Source: Gammaproteobacteria bacterium
Lineage (GTDB): Bacteria > Pseudomonadota > Gammaproteobacteria > DATFLL01
Length of the DNA: 64,000 nt
Direction: 5' to 3'
Assembly (NCBI GenBank): GCA_035267785.1
Contig: DATFLL010000075.1
Location: 41,579 to 105,578 of the forward strand
Translations under genes and position numbers: made by a program
The notes under the pieces: model-generated
What the model was told of the DNA's origin: nothing
What the model saw: only the letters and a program-made list of their open reading frames with translations
The model's database searches: none
Shown here: positions 19,122 to 34,571 of the stretch, in pieces
Position numbering within the stretch: position 1 is the first letter of the stretch
How the letters are laid out: every line of letters starts with the position of its first letter

Positions 19122-19874
19122 ATGACCGCAGAAATTGCCAATATAATAACGCTTCTCGGTGCGAAGGTCGTGCGCGTCGTCCCATGGCTGGGGCCGGCCG
19201 GAACCGCAACCTTCGCATTGCTGCTGCTTTGGCCGCGGATGCGCGGCAAGGTTCGTGAGCGGCGCATGCGCCGGGTCATCGAACGGTGCGGCCTCGATTT
19301 TGTCAAAGATGTCATGTTGCCCGATGGGATGGATGGCATTACTCACATCGATTATCTGCTGTTGCGGCCCGATACCATCGTCGTTGCCGACTTGAAGAGG
19401 TATCAGGGGATTCTGTTCGGTGCTGAGCACATCGACCAGTGGACGCAGCTCGTCGGTCAAAAAAGCTTCAAGTTCCCCAATCCGCTGTTCAAGAACGAGC
19501 TGGATGTGATGGCGGTGAAGGCCCAGGTGCCGGCGGCGCCGATTACCGGGCGCGTGATCTTCTCCGATGAAGGCAGTTTCCCCAAGGGTATCCCCGCCGG
19601 GGTTTCGATGCTCGGCACGTTGGCGCAGGATCTCGGCGTGAGCGGTTCGAGCGGCCAGGGTTCCGATGCCGCAGGCTCGGCGGCGCCCCGCGAGCCGTCG
19701 GCGGCGGTCGCCAGCGCGTGGCAGGCGCTGCGCAGCGCGCTGGCGCAGGCCAGCGCCGGCGGTGCGAGGGAGCGCGGGCGCGGCGGTGGCAGCGGCATTG
19801 TCATGGCCTCGCTGCTCCTGGCGCTCTCTTGTGCCTGGGCGCTGTGGATGCTGCGCGCCACGCTGTTCGGATAG
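19122..19874 (+). CDS. NERD (nuclease-related domain) protein with C-terminal membrane anchor
   Basis: MTAEIANIITLLGAKVVRVVPWLGPAGTATFALLLLWPRM, then NERD-type core HIDYLLLRPDTIVVADLKRYQGILFG..QW, a Ser/Gly/Ala linker, and a terminal helix IVMASLLLALSCAWALWML. Confidence 0.65.
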   Translation: MTAEIANIITLLGAKVVRVVPWLGPAGTATFALLLLWPRMRGKVRERRMRRVIERCGLDFVKDVMLPDGMDGITHIDYLLLRPDTIVVADLKRYQGILFGAEHIDQWTQLVGQKSFKFPNPLFKNELDVMAVKAQVPAAPITGRVIFSDEGSFPKGIPAGVSMLGTLAQDLGVSGSSGQGSDAAGSAAPREPSAAVASAWQALRSALAQASAGGARERGRGGGSGIVMASLLLALSCAWALWMLRATLFG

Positions 19875-19882
19875 GCACGACC

Positions 19883-20347
19883 ATGCTCGATTCGCTTCAA
19901 AAGCTCTTCGATCGGTATCTCGACCCTCAGGCCCCCGGCGGCGAGCGTGAGCGCCAGCAGGCGCTGCAGGTTGCCGCCGCGGCGCTGCTCATCGAAGTGA
20001 TGCAGGCGGACTATGATGTCAGTGATGACGAGCGCAGGGCGGTCACCCGCGCCGTTCGTCAGACGTTCCGCCTGTCCGAGGCGGAGGCCGGCGAGCTGAT
20101 ACACCGCGCCGAAAGCGAGGCGATGAACGCGACATCCCTCTATCAGTTCACCTCGCTCATCAACGATCGGTTCTCCTACTCGGACAAGGCCGACGTCATC
20201 GAGCAGATGTGGCAGGTGGCCTATGCCGACGGCGAGCTCGACAAATACGAAGAACACCTGATCCGCAAGGTCGCCGACTTGATTTACGTCTCCCACAGCG
20301 ATTTCATTCGCGCCAAGCTCAGGGCAGCGGGCGAGGAGGGCGCCTGA
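19883..20347 (+). CDS. TerB-family (tellurite-resistance TerB-like / DjlA N-domain-like) protein
   Basis: ALLIEVMQADYDVSDDERRAVTRAV ... DKADVIEQMWQVAYADGELDKYEEHLIRKVADLIYVSHSDF fits the TerB fold signature. Starts 9 nt after the NERD stop. Confidence 0.7.
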   Translation: MLDSLQKLFDRYLDPQAPGGERERQQALQVAAAALLIEVMQADYDVSDDERRAVTRAVRQTFRLSEAEAGELIHRAESEAMNATSLYQFTSLINDRFSYSDKADVIEQMWQVAYADGELDKYEEHLIRKVADLIYVSHSDFIRAKLRAAGEEGA

Positions 20348-20695
20348 GCGCGCAACCCCCTCGTCGGCCCGTGTGCCGACGTGCGTAGCAGCCGGTAGAG
20401 GGAACGCGTCATCGACGAACACGGCGCGCCATTCATGCCTCGTTATTGAAGCCGTATCGAATCGCCGGGATTGGAACGGCTGCATCGTCCCGGCCGGGCT
20501 GGCCCGGGGAGGGACACTGGTCCGGCAAATGTGATTCAATACATGACATGCGGTGGTTTGCACAATTATGGTATGAATGGATTAGACCATGAGTGAACCG
20601 GACCACGACCGGCGAAGGCGATCGGCTCAGGGTATGAGTGCATCGGAACCAATACGACGGGGGACGCACCTGTCAGGCGACTTGGGCGCGGGGGA

Positions 20696-21193
20696 ATGAC
20701 GTTGCGGCGTGTGACGCGGCGTTTGCGATTGGCGCTGTTCTGGGGCGCCGCTTTCGGTCTGTTCCTTTCGTGGGCGCCCGCGGCTCCGGCGGCGAGCGAT
20801 TCGGCGCATCCGGCGACCGAAGGGCGCGTGGCGCGCGCCTTGTTTACCACCGACGTGGTCAATCGCGAGCCGGTGGATCGCGTCCTGGTACTCAGTAATG
20901 CCAAGGACGAGATCTACTTCTTCACCGATCTGCGCCACATGCAGGGCAAGACGATCATCCATCGCTGGATGTACAAGGGCAAGGTGGTGGCGAGCGTCCC
21001 CTTCAAGGTCAAGGGCCCGCGTTGGCGGGTCTATTCCAGAAAGCAGCTGGATCCCAAGGAACTGGGCAAGTGGACGGTGATCGTCACCGACAGCAAGGGC
21101 TGGCCGCTGAAGGCGGGGATATTCCGCTATGTCGCCGCGGGTGGTTCGGGCAAGAACGCCCCCGTCATTCTGCCGCCAGACGCCGACGAATAA
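20696..21193 (+). CDS. Secreted protein, DUF2914-like
   Basis: Signal peptide LRLALFWGAAFGLFLSWAPAAPAAS. RWMYKGKVVASVPFKVKGPRWRVYSRKQL resembles the DUF2914 C-terminal domain (from memory). Confidence 0.5.
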   Translation: MTLRRVTRRLRLALFWGAAFGLFLSWAPAAPAASDSAHPATEGRVARALFTTDVVNREPVDRVLVLSNAKDEIYFFTDLRHMQGKTIIHRWMYKGKVVASVPFKVKGPRWRVYSRKQLDPKELGKWTVIVTDSKGWPLKAGIFRYVAAGGSGKNAPVILPPDADE

Positions 21194-21232: not shown

Positions 21233-24200
21233 CTATTGGGCGCCGGGGTGGCCGGGTACCGGCGGTGCCGGTGTAGTGGACGTTGTTCCGGCCGGCGCGG
21301 ACGGTTCGGGCGCCGGGGCGGCAACGACCGGCGGGGCCGACGACGGCGCGTTGTCCGCCTCGCTGCGGGTGTCGTTGGCGTTGGGCCGCGCGTCCGGGGA
21401 TCCCTTGAACATCGGCACGCTGTTCAATTTCTTGCGCCACTCGCGCAGCAGCGTTGAGAACTCGCCTTCGGCCTGTTCGACCACCTTGGCTTCCTGGCGC
21501 GAACGCGCCTCGGCCAGGCGCGCTGCGCGTTCACGCCGGGCGGTGGCACTGTCCGCGGACTGTTCGGCCTGTCCGCTGGCGAGTCGCGCTTTCAGGCTGG
21601 ACCAGGGCACCTCACTGATGCCGTAGGCGACTCCGACAGCCACAACGAGCGTGGCGGCAATCGCGACGATGCCGCGCCGGGAGGGGCGGGGCGTCGACCG
21701 CGCCTTGGGGGCCGGCCGGTTCGTGCTGCGCTTGGAGCCGCTGCCGATGCTACCGGCGCCATAGGAGCTCGGCGAGGCCTCGAATACCGCCCGGTTGGCG
21801 CTCGGTGCCTCGGTTACAGTCGGCGCCGCTTCGGCGGCCGGCGGCGGGGCGGGACTGGCGGCAGGGGGCGGCGGGGCGGGTTTGACCTCCGGGGCGGGGG
21901 CCGGCTCCGGCTCCTCAATGCTGATGAATTCGTCTCCGAATCCCTCGTCATCGATCGTGACGGTCGCGGGCTCGGGCGAGGGGGTGGGCGGCGCCGCCGG
22001 CGCAGCCGGTGTCGCCCTTGGCGGGGGGATGTCGTTCAGCTTGCCGCCCGAATTGGGCTCGACAAAGACGAAGATGTCCTCTTCGCCTTCCAGGATCAGC
22101 TTATTATCCACCCGGCGCAGCCCGGTATGGATGGCGTGCTCGGCGCCGCTGCGCTGCTGGCGCCGCTTCTTTTCGACCGTTTGCAGGCGCTTGGCGATGG
22201 TCGCGGCCATTTGGCGCGCCTCTTCGGCTTTTTTGAGGCGCGATTCGGCCGTGGTCAACACGTCGGCTGCGCGAGACTCGGCCTGCTGTCGGGCGGCCTC
22301 GGCGGCCGCGGCTCGGCGCGCCTCCTCTTCGGCCCGTCGCTGGGCCGCCTCGAGCTCGGCCTGGGCACGGCGGGCCGCCTCGGCCTTGTTGCGGGCCGCT
22401 TCACGCATGGCCTCTTCGCGGGCCGCCTCGGCTTCCGCCTTGAGACGTTCGGCCTCTTCGAGGGCTTCGCGCCGCATTCTTTCGGCCTCTTCACGCAGGC
22501 GCCGCGCCTCCTCCTGGGCGGCCTGGCGGGCCGCCTCGGCCGCCTTGGTCTGCTCGGCGGCCTCCATCGCCTGGCGCCGGGCGGCCTCGATCTCGGCCTC
22601 TTTACGCGCGCGCTCCTCGGCCAGGATGCGTTGTGCCTCCTGTTCCGCCTCTCTGCGGGCCGCGTCTGCCTCCTGCTCGGCGCGTCGGCGTGCCGATTCG
22701 GCCTCGGCCTTGAGGCGATTGGCCTCCTCCAGCGCCGCCAGACGCGCGGCCTCCGCGGCCTTGGCCTGCCGTTCGGCCTCAGCGGCCTGACGGCGAGTGG
22801 CCTCGATTTCGGCCTCCTTACGCCCCATCTCCTCGGATCGGACCTTTTCGGCCTCGGCCTGGGCTGCAGCGCGGGTCTTCTCTGCCGCGGCCGAGCGCTG
22901 GGCCTCCTCTTCGGCGCGACGCCGCGCCGCCTCGGCCTCGGCCTTGAGGCGGTCCGCCTCCGCTTGGGCCGCCACACGGGTCTGTTCGGCCGCTTGGGAG
23001 TGTTGGGCGACCTGCTGAGCCGCGGCCTTGCGTGCGGACTCGGCCTCGGCGCGGACCTTTTCCAGCTCCATTTCCGCCGCGCGCAGCGCCGATTCATGGT
23101 TCTTGGCGAGCTTGGTCTGCTCGGCGGCTCGGCGCTTGATATCGCCGATCTCGTCTTTTTGTTCCGCTGCCTGGGCTTGGCGCAGGCGCTCGGCCTCCTG
23201 GTCGGCGGCCTGGCGCGAAGCCTGGGCCTCCGCCTTGAGTCGGTCGGCCTCGGACTCGGCTTGCTTCTGGGCCGATTCGGCCTGTGCCAGTCGTCTTTTC
23301 GCGTCGTCGGAGGAGCCGGCGGCCTTGCTCGGCGCGGCGGATGCGGTAGCGGCGGCCTGCTTGGCGCCCGTTTGCGCGGCGGCGCCCTGCAGCCCCTCCT
23401 CGAGGACGTAGGCGGGCAGACCCTGTTGACTCATCAGGAAGGCGGCGGCGCGGCTGCGTGAGCCGTCGTCGCAGTAGACGATATAACGCTGCTCGGCCTC
23501 GAGGTTGCCGAGCTTGAGCCTGAGCACGGACAGCGGGATATTGACGGCCCCGGGCAGTGCACCTTGATGGAACTCCTCCGGACCGCGTACGTCGACAAGC
23601 ACGGCGCCGCTCTTGGTCAGGGCGGGAAGGTCTTTGGCCGAGATCGAACGCAGCAGCGGGTTGACCAACAGCGCGTTGAAATCATCCTTGCTCAGGCGCA
23701 TCAGAACGCCGTCTTCTAGCATGGTGATGGTGGCGTTGCGCGTACCGCCGGTGATGAGCGCCTCTTCGCCGAAACCGTCGCCCACGCCCAGGGTCGCCAG
23801 GTTGACGTCCTTCATCTTGGGGGCCGGGCGGCGCGAGACCTGGCAGCGGCCCAGCTTGACGATGTAGTAGTACTCGTCCCGGTCGCCCTGGTGGATGATT
23901 ACCGTGCCCTTTTTCGCCGGGACCTCTTCCATGCGCATGATCAGCGCCTGGATGTTCTCGGTGGGCAGGTTGAGGAAGGCCGGCGATTGAAGGAAACGGA
24001 ACATCCAGACGCTGGCGTCGTCGTCGCCCGAGATCTCGGTGACCTCATAGGCCCCCGGCGGGCCGTCGCTCAGCAGGATTTCGAGCAGGTCGGTATCCAC
24101 CGAAAGAATCGTCGCGGCGGTCTTGGTGCGTGCCGTGCAGGTGCGCGGCAGCTCGGGCACCAGGGGCTCGCGGGCCTCGGCGGTCTTGGCCTTGACCACA

Positions 24201-24418
24201 CGGCTGCCCAGCTTGCCGTGGGCGGTCAGCTCGATCTGACCGGACAGGAGGTACAGCGCACGGCGATCGCGTTCGCCCTGGCGGAATAACAGGCGGCCGG
24301 CGGGCATGTCTTCGACTTCCGCCTTTGCGACGAGCTCGTCGAGCTTGTCGTAGCTCAGCGAGCCGAAGGGCTCGAGGGTCTTGACGAGCTTTCTGTCGAT
24401 GCTGGTCTTGGATGCCAT
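21233..24418 (-). CDS. Large multidomain membrane protein: two cyclic-nucleotide-binding domains, a catalytic rhodanese domain, a roughly 400-aa Ala/Glu/Arg-rich coiled-coil repeat region, a TM helix and a Pro-rich C-terminal tail
   Basis: CNB motif FGEEALITGGTRNATITMLEDGVLMRLSKDDF. Rhodanese LVDVRGPEEFHQGALPGAVNIP...YCDDGSRS. Repeats RLKAEAESARRRAEQEA / KEAEIEA(T/A)RRQA. TM RRGIVAIAATLVVAVGVAYGI. Tail rich in PAPxP. ATG at 24418 (MASKTSIDRKLVKTLEPFG). Confidence 0.8.
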   Translation of the reverse strand: MASKTSIDRKLVKTLEPFGSLSYDKLDELVAKAEVEDMPAGRLLFRQGERDRRALYLLSGQIELTAHGKLGSRVVKAKTAEAREPLVPELPRTCTARTKTAATILSVDTDLLEILLSDGPPGAYEVTEISGDDDASVWMFRFLQSPAFLNLPTENIQALIMRMEEVPAKKGTVIIHQGDRDEYYYIVKLGRCQVSRRPAPKMKDVNLATLGVGDGFGEEALITGGTRNATITMLEDGVLMRLSKDDFNALLVNPLLRSISAKDLPALTKSGAVLVDVRGPEEFHQGALPGAVNIPLSVLRLKLGNLEAEQRYIVYCDDGSRSRAAAFLMSQQGLPAYVLEEGLQGAAAQTGAKQAAATASAAPSKAAGSSDDAKRRLAQAESAQKQAESEADRLKAEAQASRQAADQEAERLRQAQAAEQKDEIGDIKRRAAEQTKLAKNHESALRAAEMELEKVRAEAESARKAAAQQVAQHSQAAEQTRVAAQAEADRLKAEAEAARRRAEEEAQRSAAAEKTRAAAQAEAEKVRSEEMGRKEAEIEATRRQAAEAERQAKAAEAARLAALEEANRLKAEAESARRRAEQEADAARREAEQEAQRILAEERARKEAEIEAARRQAMEAAEQTKAAEAARQAAQEEARRLREEAERMRREALEEAERLKAEAEAAREEAMREAARNKAEAARRAQAELEAAQRRAEEEARRAAAAEAARQQAESRAADVLTTAESRLKKAEEARQMAATIAKRLQTVEKKRRQQRSGAEHAIHTGLRRVDNKLILEGEEDIFVFVEPNSGGKLNDIPPPRATPAAPAAPPTPSPEPATVTIDDEGFGDEFISIEEPEPAPAPEVKPAPPPPAASPAPPPAAEAAPTVTEAPSANRAVFEASPSSYGAGSIGSGSKRSTNRPAPKARSTPRPSRRGIVAIAATLVVAVGVAYGISEVPWSSLKARLASGQAEQSADSATARRERAARLAEARSRQEAKVVEQAEGEFSTLLREWRKKLNSVPMFKGSPDARPNANDTRSEADNAPSSAPPVVAAPAPEPSAPAGTTSTTPAPPVPGHPGAQ
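22300..23400. repeat. Imperfect in-frame tandem repeats (about 150-nt periodicity) inside the large protein gene
   Basis: Recurring DNA blocks such as ctcggcctcggccttgaggcg(a/g)t(t/c)(g/c)gcctcc at about 22,690 and 22,930, with a diverged copy near 22,430. Protein-level repeats KEAEIEATRRQAAEAERQAKAAEAARLAALEEANRLKAEAESARRRAEQEA and KEAEIEAARRQAMEAAEQTKAAEAARQAAQEEARRLREEAERMRREA. Confidence 0.5.
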
Positions 24419-24601
24419 GTCGGCCGTGCCTGGTCTTACCGTGCTTGGGGGCGTGGTTCCCGCGACGGTGTGCGGGACGCGGCGCAAGGGCGCCGCTCGC
24501 CGAGCGCCGCGCCTTTTCAAACAAGCTTAGTCGCCCACGTCGGGGCGCATTGTGAAACACCTCACAAATGAATGAGATAGCGGCCCCATCTAAACAGCTT
24601 A

Positions 24602-25306
24602 CTAGAACCTGCGGGCGAAAAACATCTCTGCCCCGCGAAACTGGCCCCCATCGACCCGCAGACCGACGTGGCCGGTGCGGTCCACATTGACGTCCAGCCC
24701 CCCGAAATAGCCGGTCCTGGTGTCCTGGTGGAAGCCGGTTGTCCGGTTGACGCTGCCGCTCAGGCGCTGATCGCCGTTGAGGACGCCATAACGGGCGCCG
24801 GCGAACAGACGCAGCCGCGCGCTGGGGCGAACGCCCGCGACCACCTCGGCCCACGCCTGATGCCAGGTGAGGGTGATGTCCTGGTCGCTCGCCGGAGAGG
24901 TATCCAGGCGGTGGTAGCTGTAATGAACGGACACGGCGGCATCGAACCGGCGCGAGGAGAGCAGATGGCCGCGCAGGGCTATCCCCCCGTAGTAGCCGTT
25001 GGGCGCTTGGCCGGCGAGGTCCGGATTGTCTGCCTGGGTGATGTCTTCGTAACCCGCGCTGAGCAGGCCGTCCAGCCCGGGCCCCAGGCTCTGGGTCAAG
25101 GTCACCCCCAGGCGCTCGACGGTGCTGTCGTAAGTAACGCCGTCGTAACGCAGCCGGGTGTTGCTGCGCTCCAGGTGCAGGGCGAAATCGACCAGTTGAT
25201 CGCCGAGGTCGGGTCCGCGATAGGTGCCGGCCGCGGCGATGTTGGACAGGGCGCCCGACACGAGTATCAGCGCCAGCCAGGCGAATCCGATGGGATGTCG
25301 GTACAT
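24602..25306 (-). CDS. Outer-membrane beta-barrel protein (small OMP, OmpW/OmpA-barrel-like)
   Basis: Signal peptide MYRHPIGFAWLALILVSGALSNIAAA. Alternating amphipathic strands. Terminal aromatic ...FFARRF is typical of OMP C-termini. Lies upstream of, and on the same strand as, the large CNB protein. Confidence 0.65.
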   Translation of the reverse strand: MYRHPIGFAWLALILVSGALSNIAAAGTYRGPDLGDQLVDFALHLERSNTRLRYDGVTYDSTVERLGVTLTQSLGPGLDGLLSAGYEDITQADNPDLAGQAPNGYYGGIALRGHLLSSRRFDAAVSVHYSYHRLDTSPASDQDITLTWHQAWAEVVAGVRPSARLRLFAGARYGVLNGDQRLSGSVNRTTGFHQDTRTGYFGGLDVNVDRTGHVGLRVDGGQFRGAEMFFARRF

Positions 25307-25549
25307 GAGTATCCTCGGGAAAGGCGCGAGGGCTCGCCGCGATGGACGGGTCTGTGAACGGGCGCCGCGCGGCAACGATCCATCATAGCATTCGTGCGAG
25401 CGCGTTGGATCGACGCCCCGGCGGGCCGTGATCGTCGCCACAAAAATTTGTCACTCACGGGGTTTGCTTTTACGATGTACTCGGGCCTTCGGCGCAGATT
25501 GTGCGCGGCGGAGGCCGACCGCGGGTACTTGCGGCAGGAGAGGGAGGAC

Positions 25550-26854
25550 ATGCGCAGAGAAAAGTTTGAGCCGTTGGGTGTGCCGGATATCGCGGACAGA
25601 GGCGCTGACTGGTCCAAGTCAACCGAACAGGAGCCGCGGGGCGGGCGGGTCACCGCCCTGGACCGCCGGCTTGCGCGCCAGCTGTTGGCGGCGGTCGGCT
25701 CGCCCCCGTTTCGCCTTGTGCTTTGGAACGGCGAGACGGTCGCCGGTTCCGACGACAAGAACAGCCTCGTCGTGCGTTTCCGGGATCGCGGCGCGATGTT
25801 GGGCCTGCTTTACGATCCCGAACTGCGCTTCGGGGACCTCTACAGCTCGGGGCGCATCGACGTTGAGGGCGACCTGCTCGAGTTCGTCGAAACAGCCTAC
25901 CGCGCGCTGGATGTGAAGCTCGCCCACAGCCCATGGCACCATCGCCTGTCTCGGCTGCGCAACCGCCCGCGCAGCAACAGCCTGACCGGTTCGCGTAGCA
26001 ACATCCATCACCATTACGACCTGGGTAACGAGTTCTATCGGCTGTGGCTGGATCGCGAGGTGATGCAGTACACCTGCGCCTATTACCCGGACCCGACCAT
26101 GACCCTGGAGCAGGCGCAGGTGGCCAAGCTGCACCACGTCTGCCGCAAGCTGCGCCTGCAGCCGGGGCAGACGGTCGCCGAGGCCGGTTGCGGCTGGGGT
26201 GGTCTGGCGCGCTTCATGGCCAAGCATTACGGCGTCAAGGTACGCGCCTACAATATCTCCCACGAGCAGGTCAGTTTCGCCCGTGAGCGTGCGGCCGAGG
26301 AGGGGCTGGCCGAGCGTGTCGAGTACGTCGAAGACGACTACCGCAACATTCGCGGCGATTTCGATGTCTTCGTCTCGGTGGGTATGCTCGAGCACGTCGG
26401 CACCGACCACTACCGCGAGCTCGGCGGCGTCATCGACCGTTGTCTCAAGGACGACGGCCGCGGCCTTATCCACACCATCGGGCGCAATCAGGCGGGGCTG
26501 ATGAACGCCTGGATCGAGAAGCGCATCTTCCCCGGCGCCTACCCGCCGACCCTGGGTCAGATGATGGAAATCTTCGAGCCCTGGGAATTCTCCGTGCAGG
26601 ATGTGGAGAATCTGCGCCTGCACTATGCCCGCACGTTGACACACTGGCTGGAGCGTTTCGACCAGAACCTCGACAAAATCGAGGACATGTTCGACGAACG
26701 CTTCATCCGGGCGTGGCGCCTGTACCTCGTCGGTTCGATTGCGGCCTTTACCACCGGCTCCCTGCAGCTGTTCCAGGTGGTGTTCGAGCGCCCGCGGACC
26801 AACGAGCTGCCCTGGAGCCGCGCTCACCTGTATGCGGGTGACCACCCGCAATAA
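25550..26854 (+). CDS. Cyclopropane-fatty-acyl-phospholipid synthase family SAM-dependent methyltransferase
   Basis: VAEAGCGWGGLARFMAKHYGVKVRAYNISHEQ ... FDVFVSVGMLEHVG ... IEKRIFPGAYPPTL. Cfa/mycolic-acid-methyltransferase fold, 435 aa. RBS GAGAGGGAGG. Confidence 0.85.
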   Translation: MRREKFEPLGVPDIADRGADWSKSTEQEPRGGRVTALDRRLARQLLAAVGSPPFRLVLWNGETVAGSDDKNSLVVRFRDRGAMLGLLYDPELRFGDLYSSGRIDVEGDLLEFVETAYRALDVKLAHSPWHHRLSRLRNRPRSNSLTGSRSNIHHHYDLGNEFYRLWLDREVMQYTCAYYPDPTMTLEQAQVAKLHHVCRKLRLQPGQTVAEAGCGWGGLARFMAKHYGVKVRAYNISHEQVSFARERAAEEGLAERVEYVEDDYRNIRGDFDVFVSVGMLEHVGTDHYRELGGVIDRCLKDDGRGLIHTIGRNQAGLMNAWIEKRIFPGAYPPTLGQMMEIFEPWEFSVQDVENLRLHYARTLTHWLERFDQNLDKIEDMFDERFIRAWRLYLVGSIAAFTTGSLQLFQVVFERPRTNELPWSRAHLYAGDHPQ

Positions 26855-26878
26855 GCTTTGGAGGTCGCCAGGAGTTCC

Positions 26879-28024
26879 ATGGAAACGACGGATGTCTTGA
26901 TCGTCGGCGGCGGGCCAGCGGGGTCGACCCTGGCCTGGCGCCTGCGCGATGCCGGTCTGCACGTGTCCATCATGGACAAGCGCGAATTTCCGCGCGACAA
27001 GGTCTGCGCAGGCTGGATTACTCCGGCGGTGGTCGAGGAGCTGGCCCTGGATACGGCCGATTACCGCAAGGAGCGGACCTTCCAGCCGATCCACGGCTTT
27101 CGCATCAGCCACCTGGGGGGCAAGGAGGTCGAGAGCCGTTACGACGGCGAGCCCGTGAGCTTCGGCATCCGCCGCTGCGAGTTCGACGAGTACCTGCTGC
27201 GCCGCGCCGCCGCCGAAGCACGCACGGCGCTGCGTCTGGGTGAGGCCTTCAAAGGCATGCGCCGCGAGGACGGCGCGTGGGTGGTGAACGATGACCTGCG
27301 CGCGCGTCTTGTGATTGGGGCCGGCGGGCACTTCTGTCCCGTGGCCCGGGCGCTGGGGGCCAAGCTCGGTTCCAGCGAATCGGTGGTCGCGGCCCAGGAG
27401 ATCGAGTTCGAAATGAGCCCGGCACAGCGCGCCGCCTGTCCGGTCGACGGCGAGGTGCCCGAGCTCTATTTCTGCCGCGACTTGAAGGGTTACGGCTGGG
27501 TCTTTCGCAAGGGCGACTGGCTCAACGTTGGCCTGGGGCGCGAGGACAATCACAAGCTCTCCGAGCATGTGGCGGAATTTCGGCAGTTCCTGATCGACCA
27601 GGGCCGGATCCCGTCGGATACGCCGGTCAAGTTCCACGGCCACGCCTATCTGTTGTACCTGCATGCCCCGCGGCCGGTGGTGGCCGACGGCGCCATGCTC
27701 ATCGGCGATGCTGCGGGCCTGGCCTATCCCCAAAGCGGCGAGGGTATTCGCCCGGCCATCGAATCGGCCCTGATGGCTGCCGAGGTGATCCGGGCCGCCG
27801 ACGGTGACTACGCGCAGGCACGTCTGGCGCCGTATCAGGCTCGTCTGACCGAACGCTTCGGTGATCGGCCGAGCGATGTCGGCATCGCCTCGCTGCTGCC
27901 CGACGGGCTCAAGCAGTTCATCGCCTCCCGCCTGCTTGCCACCCGCTGGTTCACCCGCGGCGTGGTCATGGACCGCTGGTTTCTGCATACCCATCAGCCC
28001 GTTCTGCGCGTCGGTACCGCCTGA
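26879..28024 (+). CDS. FAD-dependent oxidoreductase (geranylgeranyl-reductase-like family)
   Basis: DVLIVGGGPAGSTLAWRLRDAGLHVSIMDKREFPRDKVCAGWI is a GxGxxG dinucleotide fold. Starts 25 nt after the cfa-like stop, suggesting an operon. Confidence 0.8.
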   Translation: METTDVLIVGGGPAGSTLAWRLRDAGLHVSIMDKREFPRDKVCAGWITPAVVEELALDTADYRKERTFQPIHGFRISHLGGKEVESRYDGEPVSFGIRRCEFDEYLLRRAAAEARTALRLGEAFKGMRREDGAWVVNDDLRARLVIGAGGHFCPVARALGAKLGSSESVVAAQEIEFEMSPAQRAACPVDGEVPELYFCRDLKGYGWVFRKGDWLNVGLGREDNHKLSEHVAEFRQFLIDQGRIPSDTPVKFHGHAYLLYLHAPRPVVADGAMLIGDAAGLAYPQSGEGIRPAIESALMAAEVIRAADGDYAQARLAPYQARLTERFGDRPSDVGIASLLPDGLKQFIASRLLATRWFTRGVVMDRWFLHTHQPVLRVGTA

Positions 28025-28153
28025 GGCCCGTCGGTCGCCCCCTCGGGTGCCGCCTGCCGGCGCAATGGCGTAGAATCCTGCCCTGAGTTCCCCACCAGGG
28101 GCCGGCGCCGGACCGCGAGCCAGGCGCCGGCCGAGCGCCGATCCGAAGATTCC

Positions 28154-31100
28154 GTGTCCACTGAGCCCTCCGCCACCACGCCCACCCTCGATGCTATCGC
28201 CCGATCCCTGGACGATGCCCTCGGTCGCGATCGGCACGGCCTGCGCCGTCGTCTGAGCCGCCTGCGCCGCGCAGCCAAACAGGGACAGCCCAAGGCCGGG
28301 GCGGTACGCGCGCTGGCTGCCGACGTCGAAGCCTCGTGCCAGCGCCGCGAGGCGCGCCGGGCCGCAGTCCCGCCCATCCGCTACCCTGAGGCGCTGCCGG
28401 TATGCGAGCGCCGCGAGGAGATCGCCGCGGCCATTCGCGATCATCAGGTCGTCGTGGTCTGCGGTGAGACCGGTTCGGGCAAGACCACACAGCTGCCAAA
28501 GATCTGTCTGGAGTTGGGCCGCGGCGTCGGCGGCTATATCGGCCATACCCAGCCGCGGCGCCTGGCGGCGCGCAGCGTTTGCGCGCGCATCGCCGAGGAG
28601 CTCGGTGCCGGGAGGGATGCCCGTGCGAATTCGGGCGGCGCTGTCGGTTACAAGGTGCGCTTTCACGACACCGTGGGGGAGGGCGCCTATATCAAGCTCA
28701 TGACCGACGGCATCTTGCTCGCCGAGGTCCAGGGCGATCGCTTTCTCGACCAGTACGACACGCTGATCATCGACGAGGCGCACGAGCGCAGCCTCAACAT
28801 CGACTTTCTGCTCGGTTATCTCAAGGATCTGCTGCCGCGTCGGCCCGACCTGAAGCTCATCATCACCTCGGCGACCATCGACCCCGAGCGCTTCTCCCGC
28901 CACTTCGGCGATGCGCCGGTTATCGAGGTCTCGGGGCGTACCTATCCGGTGGATATCCGCTATCGTCCCGTGCGCGGCGAGGACGAGGACGAACGCGATC
29001 GCGACCTGCAACAGGCCATCCTCGACGCCGTGGACGAGGTCTGCGCCATCGGCCCGGGCGATGTGCTGATCTTTCTGCCCGGCCAGCGCGAGATTCGCGA
29101 CACGGCCGAAGCGCTGCGCAAGCACCACCCGCCGCACACGGAGATATTGCCTCTGTACTCGCGCCTGTCGGCCGCCGAGCAGGATCGGGTCTTTCACCCG
29201 CACGGGGGACGGCGCATCGTGCTTGCCACCAACGTCGCCGAGACCTCGCTGACCGTGCCCGGGATCCGCTACGTCATCGACCCGGGTTACGCACGACTCA
29301 ACCGTTACAGCTACCGCAGCAAGGTGCAGCGCCTGCCGGTGGAGAAGATCTCGCAGGCCTCGGCCAATCAGCGTGCCGGGCGCTGCGGGCGCGTCAGTGC
29401 AGGCGTGTGTATACGCCTGTACAGCGAAGAGGATTTCGGCGCACGTGAGGCGTTCACGCCGCCGGAAATTCTGCGCACCAATCTGGCGGGCGTGATCCTG
29501 CAGATGCAGGCCCTGGGTCTGGGCGCGGTCGAGCGCTTTCCCTTTGTCGAAGCGCCCGATACGCGTCATGTCAACGACGGCTACCGTCTGCTGCAGGAGC
29601 TCGGCGCGGTCGACGAACGCCGGCACATCACGGCCATCGGGCGCGAGCTGGCCCGCCTGCCCATCGACGTGCGTCTGGGGCGCATGCTGCTGGCGGCGCG
29701 TGAGGAGCGCTGCCTGGCAGAGGTCCTCATCATCGTCTCGGCGCTGGCGGTGCAGGACCCGCGTGAGCGCCCGCTCGAGGCACAGGCGCAGGCCGATGCG
29801 GCGCACGAGGCCTTTGCGGACGAGCATTCGGACTTCGTCTCCTATTTGAAGCTCTGGACCTTCTACCAGGAGCAAAAGCGCCACCTGTCGCACAGGAAGC
29901 TGCGTGCCCTGTGTCGGGAGCGCTTCCTGTCCTACCTGCGCCTGCGCGAATGGGAGGACATCCACCGCCAGCTGGCCGCGCAGCTGAGTGGAATGGGGAT
30001 GACAATCAACAGAACGCCGGTAGAGGGTGACGAGGGCTATGCGGCGATTCACCGGGCGCTGTTGCACGGGTTGCTCGGAAACGTCGCGATGCGCCGCGAT
30101 GCGCGCAGCCATCTGGGCGCGCGCAATCTCCAGCTCCAGGTCCACCCCGGCTCGGCACTGGCCAAAAAGCCGCCCAAGTGGCTGGTGGCGGCCGAGTTGG
30201 TGGAGACGACGCGACTGTATGCGCGCACGGTGGCGCGGATTGAGCCGGCCTGGATAGAGCCGGTCGCGGGCCACCTGCTCAAGCGCAGCTATTCGGAGCC
30301 GCACTGGGAGCGGCGCGCGGGCCGGGTGGCGGCGTTCGAACGCGCCACGCTCTACGGCCTGCCCGTGGTGGCGCGGCGCAAGGTCAATTACGGCCCGATC
30401 GATCCCGTCGCCGCGCGGGAGTTGTTTATCCGAGGGGCCCTGGTCGAAGGAGACTTTCAGACACGCGGCGGCTTTCTGGTCCACAACCGCGCCCTGCTCG
30501 AGGAGGTCCAGGGACTGGAGCACAAGGCGCGGCGGCGCGACATCGTGGTCGACGAGGACACGCTGTACGCGTTCTACGATCGGCGCTTGCCCGCGGAGGT
30601 CTATGACGGCGTACGCTTCGAACGCTGGCGCAAGCAGGCCGAGGCGCAAACGCCGAATCTGTTATACCTGCGCCGCGAGGACCTGCTGCGCAAGGACGCG
30701 CGGGCGGTCAGCGGCGAGCGTTTCCCCGATACGCTGGCATTGGGCGATGCGGTATTGGCGCTGCATTACCACTTCGAGCCCGGCCATGCGGAAGACGGCG
30801 TGACCGTGGACGTGCCCTTGCCGGTGTTGAATCAACTGTCGGCGGCGAACCTGGACTGGCTGGTGCCCGGGCTGCTCATGGACAAGGCCGTCGCCCTCAT
30901 CAAATCCCTGCCCAAGTCGCTGCGGCGCAACTTCGTGCCGGCCCCGGATTTTGCCGCCGCCGCTTTGGAGGGCGCGACGTCGCGCGAACGGCGGTTGACC
31001 GAGGTGTTGGGCGAGGTGCTCGAGCGTATGACGGGTGTGGCGGTGCCGGCCGAGGCGTGGTGCGTCGAAGAGCTGCCCGAACACCTTCATATGCGTGTGC

Positions 31101-32137
31101 GCGTGATCGATGCCCAGGGCGGCGAACTCGCCAGCGGTCGCGACCTGGACGTTCTGCAGGCGCGGTGGGGCGAACGGGCCCGTGCCGCGTTTGAGTCCGA
31201 AGCCAGTGCCGATACCAATGCCGGTCGCGGTGCCGAGCGGGCGGCGCCCGGGCACGATGGAATTACAAAGTGGGACTTCGGGACCCTGGAGACGGCCGTG
31301 TCGGTCGAGCGCGGCGGGCTGACCCTGCAGGCCTATCCGGCGCTGGAGGATCGGGGCAAGAGCGTGACCCTGCGCCTGCTGGACAGCGCCGAACAGGCGC
31401 GGGCGATGACCCGCGGCGGGCTGCGGCGTCTGTACATGCTGGCCCTGGCGGACAAGGTCAAATATCTGCGCCGCAACCTGCGCGAGATCGACACGATGTG
31501 TCTGCAGTTCTCAGCGGTGGGGCGCTGCGAGGCGCTCAAGGACGATCTGATCGCCTGTGCCTTCGATCGAGTGTTTCTCGACGAGCACACCTGGCCGCGC
31601 ACCGGCGCGGAGTTCGCCGCCCGGGTGGAGGCCGGTCGGGGGCGCGTCATCGAGGTGGCCGACGGGATCGCCGCCCAGGCGGGCGCGGCGCTGGCCGCCT
31701 ACCATGACGTGGCCAAGCGCGTGCGCGGCAGTATTCCGCCCTCGTGGATGCATGCGGTCAAGGACATTCGCGAACAGCTCTCGGGGCTGGTTTATCCGGG
31801 GTTTGTCAGCGCAACCCCGCCGGCGCAGCTCGCTCACCTGGCGCGTTACCTGCACGCCATTTCCCGCCGACTGGACAAGCTCGATCGGAATCCGGCGCGC
31901 GACCGCGAACAGATGCTGGTGCTGCGCCCGCTGTGGGAAGCCTACCGGCAGCGGGCGCAGGCCGCCGAGGGGACCGGGATCGCAGGCGCGGGGGCAAGCG
32001 GCGACTCGGCCCTGGCACAGTTTCATTGGCTGCTGGAGGAGTGGCGCGTCTCGCTGTTCGCCCAGGAGCTCAAAACGGCCCAGCCCGTCTCCGAGCAGCG
32101 GCTGCGTCAGGCGTGGCAGGCGTTGTCGGGCACTTGA
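28154..32137 (+). CDS. hrpA: ATP-dependent RNA helicase HrpA (DEAH-box)
   Basis: VVVCGETGSGKTTQLPK, DEAHERSLNIDFLLGYLK, SATID, the HA2/OB region and a long C-terminal extension (1327 aa) are typical of HrpA. GTG start. Confidence 0.9.
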   Translation: MSTEPSATTPTLDAIARSLDDALGRDRHGLRRRLSRLRRAAKQGQPKAGAVRALAADVEASCQRREARRAAVPPIRYPEALPVCERREEIAAAIRDHQVVVVCGETGSGKTTQLPKICLELGRGVGGYIGHTQPRRLAARSVCARIAEELGAGRDARANSGGAVGYKVRFHDTVGEGAYIKLMTDGILLAEVQGDRFLDQYDTLIIDEAHERSLNIDFLLGYLKDLLPRRPDLKLIITSATIDPERFSRHFGDAPVIEVSGRTYPVDIRYRPVRGEDEDERDRDLQQAILDAVDEVCAIGPGDVLIFLPGQREIRDTAEALRKHHPPHTEILPLYSRLSAAEQDRVFHPHGGRRIVLATNVAETSLTVPGIRYVIDPGYARLNRYSYRSKVQRLPVEKISQASANQRAGRCGRVSAGVCIRLYSEEDFGAREAFTPPEILRTNLAGVILQMQALGLGAVERFPFVEAPDTRHVNDGYRLLQELGAVDERRHITAIGRELARLPIDVRLGRMLLAAREERCLAEVLIIVSALAVQDPRERPLEAQAQADAAHEAFADEHSDFVSYLKLWTFYQEQKRHLSHRKLRALCRERFLSYLRLREWEDIHRQLAAQLSGMGMTINRTPVEGDEGYAAIHRALLHGLLGNVAMRRDARSHLGARNLQLQVHPGSALAKKPPKWLVAAELVETTRLYARTVARIEPAWIEPVAGHLLKRSYSEPHWERRAGRVAAFERATLYGLPVVARRKVNYGPIDPVAARELFIRGALVEGDFQTRGGFLVHNRALLEEVQGLEHKARRRDIVVDEDTLYAFYDRRLPAEVYDGVRFERWRKQAEAQTPNLLYLRREDLLRKDARAVSGERFPDTLALGDAVLALHYHFEPGHAEDGVTVDVPLPVLNQLSAANLDWLVPGLLMDKAVALIKSLPKSLRRNFVPAPDFAAAALEGATSRERRLTEVLGEVLERMTGVAVPAEAWCVEELPEHLHMRVRVIDAQGGELASGRDLDVLQARWGERARAAFESEASADTNAGRGAERAAPGHDGITKWDFGTLETAVSVERGGLTLQAYPALEDRGKSVTLRLLDSAEQARAMTRGGLRRLYMLALADKVKYLRRNLREIDTMCLQFSAVGRCEALKDDLIACAFDRVFLDEHTWPRTGAEFAARVEAGRGRVIEVADGIAAQAGAALAAYHDVAKRVRGSIPPSWMHAVKDIREQLSGLVYPGFVSATPPAQLAHLARYLHAISRRLDKLDRNPARDREQMLVLRPLWEAYRQRAQAAEGTGIAGAGASGDSALAQFHWLLEEWRVSLFAQELKTAQPVSEQRLRQAWQALSGT

Positions 32138-32147
32138 CCGGGTGTCG

Positions 32148-33671
32148 TCACGCCGCGTCCGCGGCGCTGCCGCCCGTGTGGCCGCGGTAGGCCGCGATCA
32201 GGCGCATGGCTTGGGTGCGGCAGCGTGCGTCCAGCGCCATGGCGTGCTCCAACGCGGTAACGCCCGCCGGTTCGCCGCAAGACAGCAGCAGTCGACCGGC
32301 CTCGAGCAGTTGAGCGGCGTCGTCAGGATGTTCGCTCACCAGGCGCTTGAACAGCGGTACGGCGGCGGACTTGTCGAGATGTTTGGCCACAAGGCGTGCG
32401 TGCATCCATGCTTCGCGCGGTTCGAGAGCACCGCGTTGGGCACGTGCATTGAGCGTCTTGAGTACCTGCAGCTCGCGCTGATACTTGGTATGGCGCTGCT
32501 GCCACTCGGCCAGGTGTCCGCGCAGCCAGCTTTTGTCCAGTCGGGCGCACAGATTGGGCAGGGCGGCGCCGAGCAGCGCGGCCGTCGCCGTTTCTCCGCC
32601 GGTCGCCGCGGGTAGGTGACCGTGTTCGTGACCGATGTTGTCGAGCCGCTCGGCCAGGCCGGGCTGCAGCGCATCGCCGTCGCGACGCATGGCCTCGGTC
32701 AGCCACCGCTGGGGCTCGCTGCGCTGCAGCAGCGTGGGCAGCGCCTGGATCAGCCGGCTGTAGGGTCCCATCGGCGGAGTCGCGTGTTTGTATGCCAGGC
32801 GCCAGAAGGGCGGCCAGAATCGCTCCTTGAGCAGACGTGGATAGACGGTCAACGCCGACACGAGCTCGACGACGACGCGATCGTTGACGGTATCCAGTGC
32901 GTATTGATCGCCCTCGAGCTCATCGCGACGCACCGTATAGCGGGCGGCGAACGTGAACAGCCGCGCGTACCAAAGAAAGCACACCTGTAGCAGCCAACGC
33001 ACTTTCGGTGGCTGCAGACGATAGAGCTTCGCGTACTGCAACCAGGCCTCGTGAAGACGATGCAACCAGCCGGTGATGCGGTTGTGGCGCAGACTGGCCT
33101 GGCCGATGGCGCGGGCCAGCGCGCCTTCGGCGTGTTCGGGTGACAGTGCCGCCATCAGCGGCAGGCCGATGCGAAGGTGCAGGCGCGGGGCGAAGGGAAA
33201 TCCGTTCAGCGGGACGTAACCCATGGTTACCGCCATCTCGCCGGTCAAGGTGACGCGGTGGGCCGGGCTTGCCCCGTAGGTGGTGTACAGGGCCGCGAGA
33301 TGTTCGAACAGGGCGGGGCATTCGGACTGCTGAAGCTCGATGCCGCCGGCGTCGCCCCGGTCGGGCTTGAGCCGCAGCAGTGCGACGGTCACTCCAGTGC
33401 CAAACACCGCCGCGACGACCTCGCCCGCAACTGCGGCCCAGCCCAGCGGCCCGTCGGCCGCCATCACGCTGTCGGGCAGGTCGACCAGACAATAGATGGC
33501 CAGTATCGGGAAGGCGAGCAGCCACACATAACCCAGGACGGCGAGCGCCGCGGTCAATGCCAGATACAGGCTCGGCAGATTTCGCGTCAGGCGGGCCAGC
33601 GCCGAGCGGCGGCGCCCGCGCCGTGGTTTACGGCCGGTGCGCTCGAGCAGCTGTTTGAGGGGTTGCCACAT
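32148..33671 (-). CDS. Hypothetical polytopic membrane protein with helical C-terminal region
   Basis: N-terminal TM helices (LYLALTAALAVLGYVWLLAFPILAIYCLV). Contains HEHGH about 370 aa in. The ORF is long and coding-like. Convergent with hrpA, 10 nt apart. Confidence 0.55.
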   Translation of the reverse strand: MWQPLKQLLERTGRKPRRGRRRSALARLTRNLPSLYLALTAALAVLGYVWLLAFPILAIYCLVDLPDSVMAADGPLGWAAVAGEVVAAVFGTGVTVALLRLKPDRGDAGGIELQQSECPALFEHLAALYTTYGASPAHRVTLTGEMAVTMGYVPLNGFPFAPRLHLRIGLPLMAALSPEHAEGALARAIGQASLRHNRITGWLHRLHEAWLQYAKLYRLQPPKVRWLLQVCFLWYARLFTFAARYTVRRDELEGDQYALDTVNDRVVVELVSALTVYPRLLKERFWPPFWRLAYKHATPPMGPYSRLIQALPTLLQRSEPQRWLTEAMRRDGDALQPGLAERLDNIGHEHGHLPAATGGETATAALLGAALPNLCARLDKSWLRGHLAEWQQRHTKYQRELQVLKTLNARAQRGALEPREAWMHARLVAKHLDKSAAVPLFKRLVSEHPDDAAQLLEAGRLLLSCGEPAGVTALEHAMALDARCRTQAMRLIAAYRGHTGGSAADAA

Positions 33672-33815
33672 GGCCGGCCTCCTGCGGCGCGGAGTATGCA
33701 TATCAATATAGCAGCAGACCATACGGCATCAGCGGCTCATCGCCGCGACCAAGGTCACAGTTCGATGCCGCGGCCGGCGTGCCCGGCAGGTCCGGAGCGA
33801 TGCGGGCGGGGCCGC

Positions 33816-34571
33816 TCAGCCTCGCTCGCGTTTGGGCATCAGGGCCTCTATCAGATCGATGGGCAACGGGAAGACGATGGTGGAGGATTTGTCGCCCGCC
33901 ACTTCGGTCAGGGTCTGCATGTAACGCAGCTGGATGGCCTGGGGCTGCGCCGAGAGCCTTTCCGCCGCCTGGACCAGCTTTTCGGCGGCCTGCATTTCGC
34001 CTTCGGCGTGGATCACCTTGGCGCGGCGTACGCGTTCGGCCTCGGCCTGTTTGGCGATGGCCCTGATCATGCTCTCGTCCAGGTCCACGTGTTTGATCTC
34101 GACGTTGGCGACCTTGATGCCCCAGGCATCGGTCTGCATATCGAGGATCGCCTGAATGTCCTGGTTGAGCTTGTCGCGTTCGGCGAGCATCTCGTCGAGC
34201 TCGTGTTGGCCCAGGACCGAGCGCAGGGTGGTCTGGGCGAGCTGACTGGTGGCCGCGTAGAAGTCCTCGACCTGGATGATGGCCTTCTCCGGTTCGATGA
34301 CGCGGAAGTAGACCACGGCGTTGACCTTGACCGAAACGTTGTCGCGCGAAATGACGTCCTGGCTGGGTACGTCCATGACAATGGTGCGCAGGTCGACCTT
34401 TTCCATGGTCTGGACCATGGGGATCACGATGATCAGCCCCGGCCCCTTGACCTTCCAGAACCGGCCGAGCATGAAGATAACGCCGCGTTCGTATTCGCGC
34501 AGAATCTTGATCGCGCTGATGAGAAACAGCGCAATCGCGCCGACGATGATGTACAGGGTGTAGGCCGTCAT
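33816..34571 (-). CDS. SPFH/band-7 (stomatin-like, QmcA family) membrane protein
   Basis: [38 protein letters not shown] ... [33 protein letters not shown], plus a coiled-coil tail. Confidence 0.9.

Follow-up and report, generated by a model that had tools for sequence, protein, structure and literature searches.

A gammaproteobacterial gene pair orthologous to tmpBA and its probable role in the 10-methyl branching of membrane fatty acids

Introduction

When a methyltransferase gene of the cyclopropane fatty acid (CFA) synthase family is followed closely by a flavoprotein gene, which lipid do the two enzymes make together? The question is raised by a gene pair at positions 25550–28024 of a 64,000-nucleotide stretch of contig DATFLL010000075.1 (assembly GCA_035267785.1, Gammaproteobacteria), referred to here as the window. 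A first-pass annotation of this DNA had described a Cfa-family methyltransferase followed 25 nt later by an oxidoreductase that binds flavin adenine dinucleotide (FAD) through a GxGxxG motif. This description is exact with respect to the open reading frames (ORFs), their Pfam matches and the 24-nt spacer. The same annotation had proposed that methylenation followed by reduction gives rise to a methyl-branched lipid, an idea that is supported by orthology to the tmpBA operon (57–66% identity), with the reduction step presumed. From the analysis described below, the window genes probably form a tmpBA operon that makes 10-methyl-branched membrane fatty acids, chiefly 10-methyl-palmitate (10Me16:0).

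Two routes to 10-methyl fatty acids have been described, the actinomycete bfaAB genes (Rv3720/Rv3719; Machida et al. 2017, PMC5660069) and the tmpBA ("ten methyl palmitate") operon (Blitzblau et al. 2021, Biotechnol Biofuels 14:12, PMC7791843). The tmpBA operon was reported from Marinobacter hydrocarbonoclasticus, Thiohalospira halophila and Desulfobacter/Desulfobacula, donor species that were chosen because 10Me16:0 is present in them. TmpB is Cfa-like, and TmpA is similar to archaeal geranylgeranyl reductases (GGRs) and not homologous to BfaA. When tmpBA was placed in E. coli, palmitoleate (16:1-delta9) was converted by TmpB to 10-methylene-palmitate (10-methylene-16:0), amounting to 70% with the T. 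halophila genes and 45% with those of M. hydrocarbonoclasticus; the Desulfobacter-type methyltransferase acted likewise. Substrates ranged from C14 to C18 with double bonds from delta9 to delta11, C14–C16 being preferred. The bfaAB and tmpBA genes are arranged in opposite order and, according to the authors, evolved independently (all PMC7791843).

Identification of the gene pair

The window proteins were compared by blastp with the TmpA and TmpB reference sequences of Additional file 3 of PMC7791843. Over approximately 400 aa, the methyltransferase shares 66% of its residues with T. halophila TmpB and 57% with M. hydrocarbonoclasticus TmpB; over 377 aa, the flavoprotein is 62% and 58% identical to the respective TmpA proteins. 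Identities to the Desulfobacter-type proteins are 36–38% for TmpB and 32–33% for TmpA. The methyltransferase matches E. coli Cfa at 44% and BfaB at 36–37% identity, in both cases over the catalytic domain only. The T. halophila and M. hydrocarbonoclasticus operons share with the window pair the two protein families, the order of methyltransferase then reductase, a tight spacing and the bicarbonate-site residues. The T. halophila pair also has the same pattern of scores against the Cfa and GGR models of NCBIfam. The Desulfobacter/Desulfobacula-type operons, in which a CFA-like methyltransferase again precedes a GGR-family flavoprotein, represent a separate lineage.

At the level of sequence, it is clear that the window pair is an orthologue of the gammaproteobacterial type of tmpBA. 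It is a further copy of a system already described in 2021 and would not surprise a lipid specialist aware of that paper; what interest remains concerns the presumed TmpA step and the implications for 10Me16:0 as a biomarker. When the literature was searched for subsequent reports of an active TmpA, or of the pair under a different name, only the 2021 paper (PMC7791843) came up. The present analysis adds the occurrence of tmpBA in at least several hundred gamma- and betaproteobacterial species, as opposed to five in the original paper, its organization as a two-gene module, the apparent GGR flavin-site cysteine of TmpA, and a C-terminal extension of the same protein.

Conservation and distribution of tmpBA

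Relatives of TmpA were sought in one genome per GTDB species, and at least 555 were confirmed. The best 80 of these were used for the analyses of loci, with the window included for the clustering of neighboring genes. The groups represented among the best 80 are Thiohalophilus, Ectothiorhodospiraceae, Thioalkalivibrio, Gallionella, Rhodocyclaceae, Burkholderiales, Steroidobacteraceae, Lysobacterales and Marinobacter. With the window TmpB as a tblastn query, a TmpB-type methyltransferase (54–68% identity) was identified directly upstream of tmpA and on the same strand in 75 of the 78 informative loci, namely those with room upstream of tmpA. At two loci, L014 (2169–3467) and L037 (5–1045), the TmpA orthologue (~61%) is paired with a divergent CMAS-family methyltransferase that is 29–35% identical to the window enzyme, and at L020, a Gallionella metagenome-assembled genome (MAG), tmpA has no adjacent methyltransferase. 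Measured from the methyltransferase stop codon to the first aligned TmpA residue, the median gap is 9 nt, and in 68 of 72 loci the two overlap or are at most 35 nt apart.

For the analysis of neighbors, the ORFs of the 80 related loci and the window were compared all-against-all by blastp and clustered. No third conserved gene was found beside the pair, the next most frequent real neighbor occurring in 12 of 81 loci, and no ferredoxin, flavodoxin or reductase was found among the recurrent neighbors in these clusters. Three large clusters (2, 3 and 9) were set aside as antisense or overlapping ORFs of a kind typical of high-GC DNA and not as real neighbors. The tmpBA operon is a self-contained, strictly two-gene module. 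The synteny flanking the window pair resembles that of Thiohalophilus.

Ten loci from Gallionella and other taxa (L013, L021, L024, L029, L043, L044, L049, L066, L070 and L072) encode a protein of about 220 aa similar to the phospholipid N-methyltransferase PmtA, whose gene immediately precedes tmpB in the same orientation, ~1.3–1.4 kb upstream of tmpA. Its score with NF045882 (196 bits) is below the cutoff of 390. The arrangement suggests a larger membrane-lipid remodeling operon in the taxa that carry the PmtA-like gene.

A tmpBA pair is also present in Thiohalophilus thiocyanatoxydans DSM 16326 (L010) and in a cultured strain, Steroidobacter agaridevorans SA29-B (L061, NZ_BLJO01000012.1). 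The fatty acids reported for SA29-B include 7.6% of the MIDI "summed feature 9", in which iso-C17:1w9c and/or 10-methyl C16:0 are not resolved from each other (PMC7966939). Part of this feature may be 10Me16:0, which would be compatible with the prediction and is no proof of it.

The flavoprotein TmpA

The window TmpA presents the GxGxxG motif as GGGPAG at residues 10–15 and is matched in Pfam by FAD_binding_3 and DAO, and not by PF01565 (FAD_binding_4). Against TIGR02032, the model of the geranylgeranyl reductase family, it scores 178 bits with a cutoff of 158.8; T. halophila TmpA scores 163 bits. The first-pass annotation had listed a grouping of the oxidoreductase with chlorophyll or menaquinone geranylgeranyl reductases among the results that would speak against its proposal. 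Membership of the geranylgeranyl reductase family is borne out by TIGR02032, but the argument is flawed because TmpA itself belongs to that family. The window protein has thousands of close homologues, most of which are unnamed or annotated as "NAD(P)/FAD-dependent oxidoreductase" or "geranylgeranyl reductase family protein".

By sequence, the nearest solved relative is the Thermoplasma GGR (PDB: 3oz2, E 1e-20). An AlphaFold (AF2) model of the window TmpA (pLDDT = 85.4, pTM = 0.88) was searched against the PDB, and 3oz2 was again the top match (E 7.6e-26, TM 0.70), followed by monooxygenases of the p-hydroxybenzoate hydroxylase (PHBH) fold and halogenases. A profile alignment places Cys43, which is invariant in 21 homologues, at the active-site Cys47 of 3oz2. 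The segment GYGWVFRKGDWLNVGLG resembles the GGR signature YxWxFPx7-8GxG, with Arg replacing Pro.

The archaeal GGRs from Thermoplasma acidophilum (Ta0516, PDB: 3oz2) and Sulfolobus (PDB: 3atq) have the fold and the GxGxxG motif in common with the window TmpA, and apparently also the flavin-facing cysteine and the YxWxF..GxG motif. As is presumed for TmpA, they act on membrane lipids and produce a methyl-branched saturated carbon. They differ in overall sequence (~26% identity) and in substrate, since archaeal GGRs reduce a trisubstituted isoprenoid double bond, whereas TmpA would presumably reduce a 1,1-disubstituted exo-methylene group on an acyl chain.

TmpA proteins of the gamma/beta type have a C-terminal helical extension of approximately 60 aa, located at residues ~313–368 in the model, in which W357, F358, W367 and F368 are invariant. 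The Desulfobacter-type TmpA is ~60 aa shorter and does not have this extension.

The methyltransferase TmpB

The window TmpB may be considered in terms of two domains, a CMAS domain (Pfam E 9.5e-85) and a CFA-synthase N-terminal domain of the lipid-binding type (DUF7884). Its matches in the PDB are cyclopropane synthases (7qos, E 7e-79; 5z9o; 6bqc). Five bicarbonate-site residues are retained (C176, E281, H308, I310 and Y359) and align with C139, E239, H266, I268 and Y317 of E. coli Cfa. These residues were considered as a means of discriminating cyclopropane-forming from methylene-forming enzymes and rejected as uninformative, since they are identical across Cfa, BfaB and TmpB.

The two-domain architecture, the sites for S-adenosylmethionine (SAM) and bicarbonate, and a phospholipid-bound unsaturated acyl substrate are features that the cyclopropane synthases have in common with the window TmpB. 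The outcome of the reaction differs: Cfa closes a cyclopropane ring, whereas the TmpB orthologues release a methylene olefin.

A neighbor-joining (NJ) tree was calculated from 70 methyltransferases of the loci and the reference sequences. The window TmpB is nested inside the clade that holds both validated gamma-type enzymes (T. halophila and M. hydrocarbonoclasticus), E. coli Cfa and the Desulfobacter-type TmpB share a branch of their own, with BfaB as the outgroup. The comparison with Cfa and BfaB that had been suggested earlier thus finds the window enzyme apart from both, within the TmpB clade. On the identities and the tree together, the orthologues of the window methyltransferase are the validated TmpB enzymes and not Cfa or BfaB. 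With regard to the family as a whole, the methylene-forming enzymes appear to be polyphyletic within CMAS, with a product specificity that would have switched more than once.

Proposed pathway and its alternatives

In the pathway favored here, TmpB would bind membrane phospholipid and transfer the methyl carbon of SAM to C10 of a cis-delta9 monounsaturated acyl chain, as described for its orthologues. The chemistry would proceed through a bicarbonate-assisted carbocation, as in cyclopropane synthase. The new methyl group would then give up a proton to resolve the cation, leaving a 10-methylene (exo-methylene) chain and not a cyclopropane ring. Because of the orthology and the five conserved bicarbonate-site residues, the window TmpB is expected to perform the same reaction as its orthologues. 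TmpA, as a membrane-peripheral FAD enzyme, would use reduced FAD and Cys43 to add a hydride and a proton across C=CH2. The resulting saturated carbon with its methyl branch would match locally what a GGR leaves on saturating an isoprenoid double bond. An FAD-dependent reduction of the exo-methylene group by TmpA may be proposed by analogy, and it fits the GGR family because GGRs convert a methyl-substituted C=C to a methyl-branched saturated carbon. The electron donor of TmpA would be encoded away from the operon.

Several points weigh against this pathway. The source organism is an uncultured gammaproteobacterium represented by a MAG, in which the system is known from its genes alone. Whether a CMAS-family enzyme forms a methylene or a cyclopropane product cannot be read from its sequence: Cfa, BfaB and TmpB have identical residues at the bicarbonate site, and the active-site residues known so far do not predict the product type. 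The Desulfobacter-type TmpB, although methylene-forming, groups with E. coli Cfa and not with the gamma-type TmpB, and the NJ tree carries no bootstrap support values. The role of TmpA as a reductase is argued from gene linkage, the lipid phenotype of the hosts and the chemistry of its family, and neither in E. coli nor in yeast did any tmpA lead to 10-methyl fatty acids (PMC7791843). For the inactivity of TmpA, the authors suggested either oxygen sensitivity or the absence of an electron carrier (PMC7791843). A missing electron donor seems the likelier reason because many of the carriers, such as Marinobacter, Steroidobacter and Gallionella, are aerobes or microaerophiles. A dedicated donor encoded elsewhere in the genome would explain the silence of TmpA in both heterologous hosts.

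The silence of TmpA may also be read another way. TmpB would still make 10-methylene chains, and TmpA would alter the methylene lipid by isomerization, oxygenation or some other change, or would act on another lipid, leaving the 10-methylene chain or a derivative as the real product. A chemistry for TmpA other than reduction is a possible and more radical variant of the proposed pathway, and one that is considered unlikely. The TmpA fold is common to flavin monooxygenases and halogenases, with fold-search scores nearly equal to those of the GGRs, and the arginine of the GGR motif takes the place of a proline in archaeal GGRs. The tmpBA species, however, contain the saturated 10-methyl product, for which they had been selected. 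The top matches of TmpA, by sequence and by fold, are GGR-family reductases, its TIGR02032 score is above the cutoff, and the catalytic-site cysteine is conserved. No other reductase linked to the pair was found in the 81 loci.

A second alternative is that a plain Cfa happens to stand beside an unrelated geranylgeranyl-type reductase that saturates an isoprenoid, either a quinone side chain or a polyprenol. The full CFA-synthase architecture of the methyltransferase, with all five bicarbonate residues and cyclopropane synthases as its top PDB matches, is as this alternative would have it, and weak sub-threshold matches connect the oxidoreductase to models of isoprenoid reductases. These matches fall far below the equivalog cutoffs (BchP-ChlP, 106 vs 343; MenJ, 80 vs 700; DGGGPL reductase, 70 vs 580). 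The methyltransferase is likewise below the cutoff of every Cfa equivalog in NCBIfam (PRK11705, 288 vs 400; CPFASynBruc, 341 vs 600; CfaB, 291 vs 650), a shortfall that the validated T. halophila TmpB shares, and its identity to validated TmpB (66%) is far above that to E. coli Cfa (44%, catalytic domain only). In two proteobacterial classes the pair is kept together with near-zero spacing in 75 of 78 loci, an arrangement that unrelated neighbors should not show. On this evidence, the second alternative is very improbable.

The "BfaB/BfaA-like" label of the first-pass annotation is not sustained, and there is next to no likelihood that the window pair belongs to the actinomycete bfaAB family: both systems follow the logic of delta9 methylenation by a SAM-dependent CMAS-family enzyme and flavoprotein reduction to a 10-methyl branch, the latter presumed for tmpBA, but BfaA is a non-homologous, NADPH-dependent protein of the FAD_binding_4 family (PF01565, as matched by M. 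smegmatis BfaA) with no blastp similarity to the window TmpA, BfaB is the outgroup of the tree, the gene order is reversed (PMC7791843), and C18 is preferred as opposed to C14–C16 for tmpBA. Membership is refuted at the reductase by blastp and Pfam, and a functional analogy alone stands.

Significance of the tmpBA assignment

The tmpBA assignment predicts a membrane phenotype of 10-methyl-palmitate for the source gammaproteobacterium. There is a reasonable case, on balance, for a wider proposal in which TmpA is the first GGR-family enzyme with a non-isoprenoid natural substrate, a phospholipid-bound 10-methylene acyl chain, and receives its electrons from a dedicated donor encoded elsewhere. 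Because at least 555 species of sulfur-oxidizing, iron-oxidizing and heterotrophic gamma- and betaproteobacteria would carry the pair, the same proposal holds that 10Me16:0 is not a specific biomarker for Desulfobacter or the actinomycetes and that part of the MIDI "summed feature 9" in many carrier taxa could be 10-methyl-16:0. The wide distribution of tmpBA is relevant wherever 10Me16:0 serves as a phospholipid fatty acid (PLFA) biomarker. A working TmpA would also help in the engineering of saturated lipids with mid-chain branches.

Layout of the locus and neighboring genes

The features of the operon are collected in Table 1. The DNA around the pair is 65% GC, and chance ORFs of high-GC DNA are ruled out as an explanation for tmpB and tmpA by their Pfam E-values and by the recurrence of the pair elsewhere. 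An antisense ORF of 1676 aa (25619–30649, minus strand) that extends across tmpB, tmpA and hrpA was treated as a probable artefact of GC-rich sequence.

Table 1. Features of the tmpBA locus within the window
Feature	Position	Strand	Basis
Candidate sigma-70-like promoter, TTGTCA-17-TACGAT	25448..25476	+	Consensus scan, 9/12 matches; weak evidence
tmpB orthologue, CFA-synthase-family SAM-dependent methyltransferase, 434 aa	25550..26854	+	Pfam, identity to TmpB, tree
Intergenic spacer / operon junction, 24 nt, with tmpA Shine-Dalgarno AGGAG	26855..26878	+	Sequence read
tmpA orthologue, FAD flavoprotein of the geranylgeranyl reductase family, 381 aa, putative 10-methylene acyl reductase	26879..28024	+	TIGR02032, identity to TmpA

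The inferred start codon of tmpB is an ATG at 25550, just 5' of which is a strong Shine-Dalgarno sequence, GGAGAGGGAGG; the N-terminal 30–50 residues of TmpB proteins are variable. The gene ends with TAA at 26852–26854, and the AGGAG of the spacer sits 5 nt ahead of the tmpA ATG at 26879. The promoter candidate was the sole site returned by the consensus scan of 25200–28400 and is located in the 108-nt gap between tmpB and the divergent upstream gene. A search of Rfam with 24500–28300, both strands, identified nothing at E ≤ 1, neither a SAM riboswitch nor another known RNA. No clear terminator was found between tmpA and hrpA, the sole terminator-like match (27962–27976) being inside tmpA and at or below the shuffle level, and a repeat search gave only short matches at chance level.

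Downstream of tmpA is the helicase gene hrpA (28154–32137), which in the window separates tmpA from a 524-aa ORF (32148–33722, minus strand) that resembles a membrane protein and has no Pfam match. At 11 loci (L001–L010 and L019), homologues of this ORF follow tmpA at a distance of 27–208 nt and are encoded on the opposite strand. The flanks at 19718–21193 (plus strand) and 33816–34571 (minus strand) encode TerB-domain, DUF2914 and SPFH/Band 7 membrane proteins, which look ordinary and have no visible operon link.

The gene divergent from tmpB (24602–25441, minus strand) encodes 279 aa with no Pfam match, an N-terminus resembling a signal peptide, and a C-terminal ...FFARRF typical of outer-membrane beta-barrels. 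An ORF of the same cluster (17) occupies the same position in five other loci, which belong to the Thiohalophilus group. Beyond it, an ORF of 1095 aa (21233–24520, minus strand) has an unusual architecture in which two cyclic-nucleotide-binding domains and a rhodanese domain are followed by ~450 aa of repeats rich in Ala, Glu, Arg and Gln and by a Pro-rich tail. The region at 22–24 kb has a strong AT skew of -0.357.

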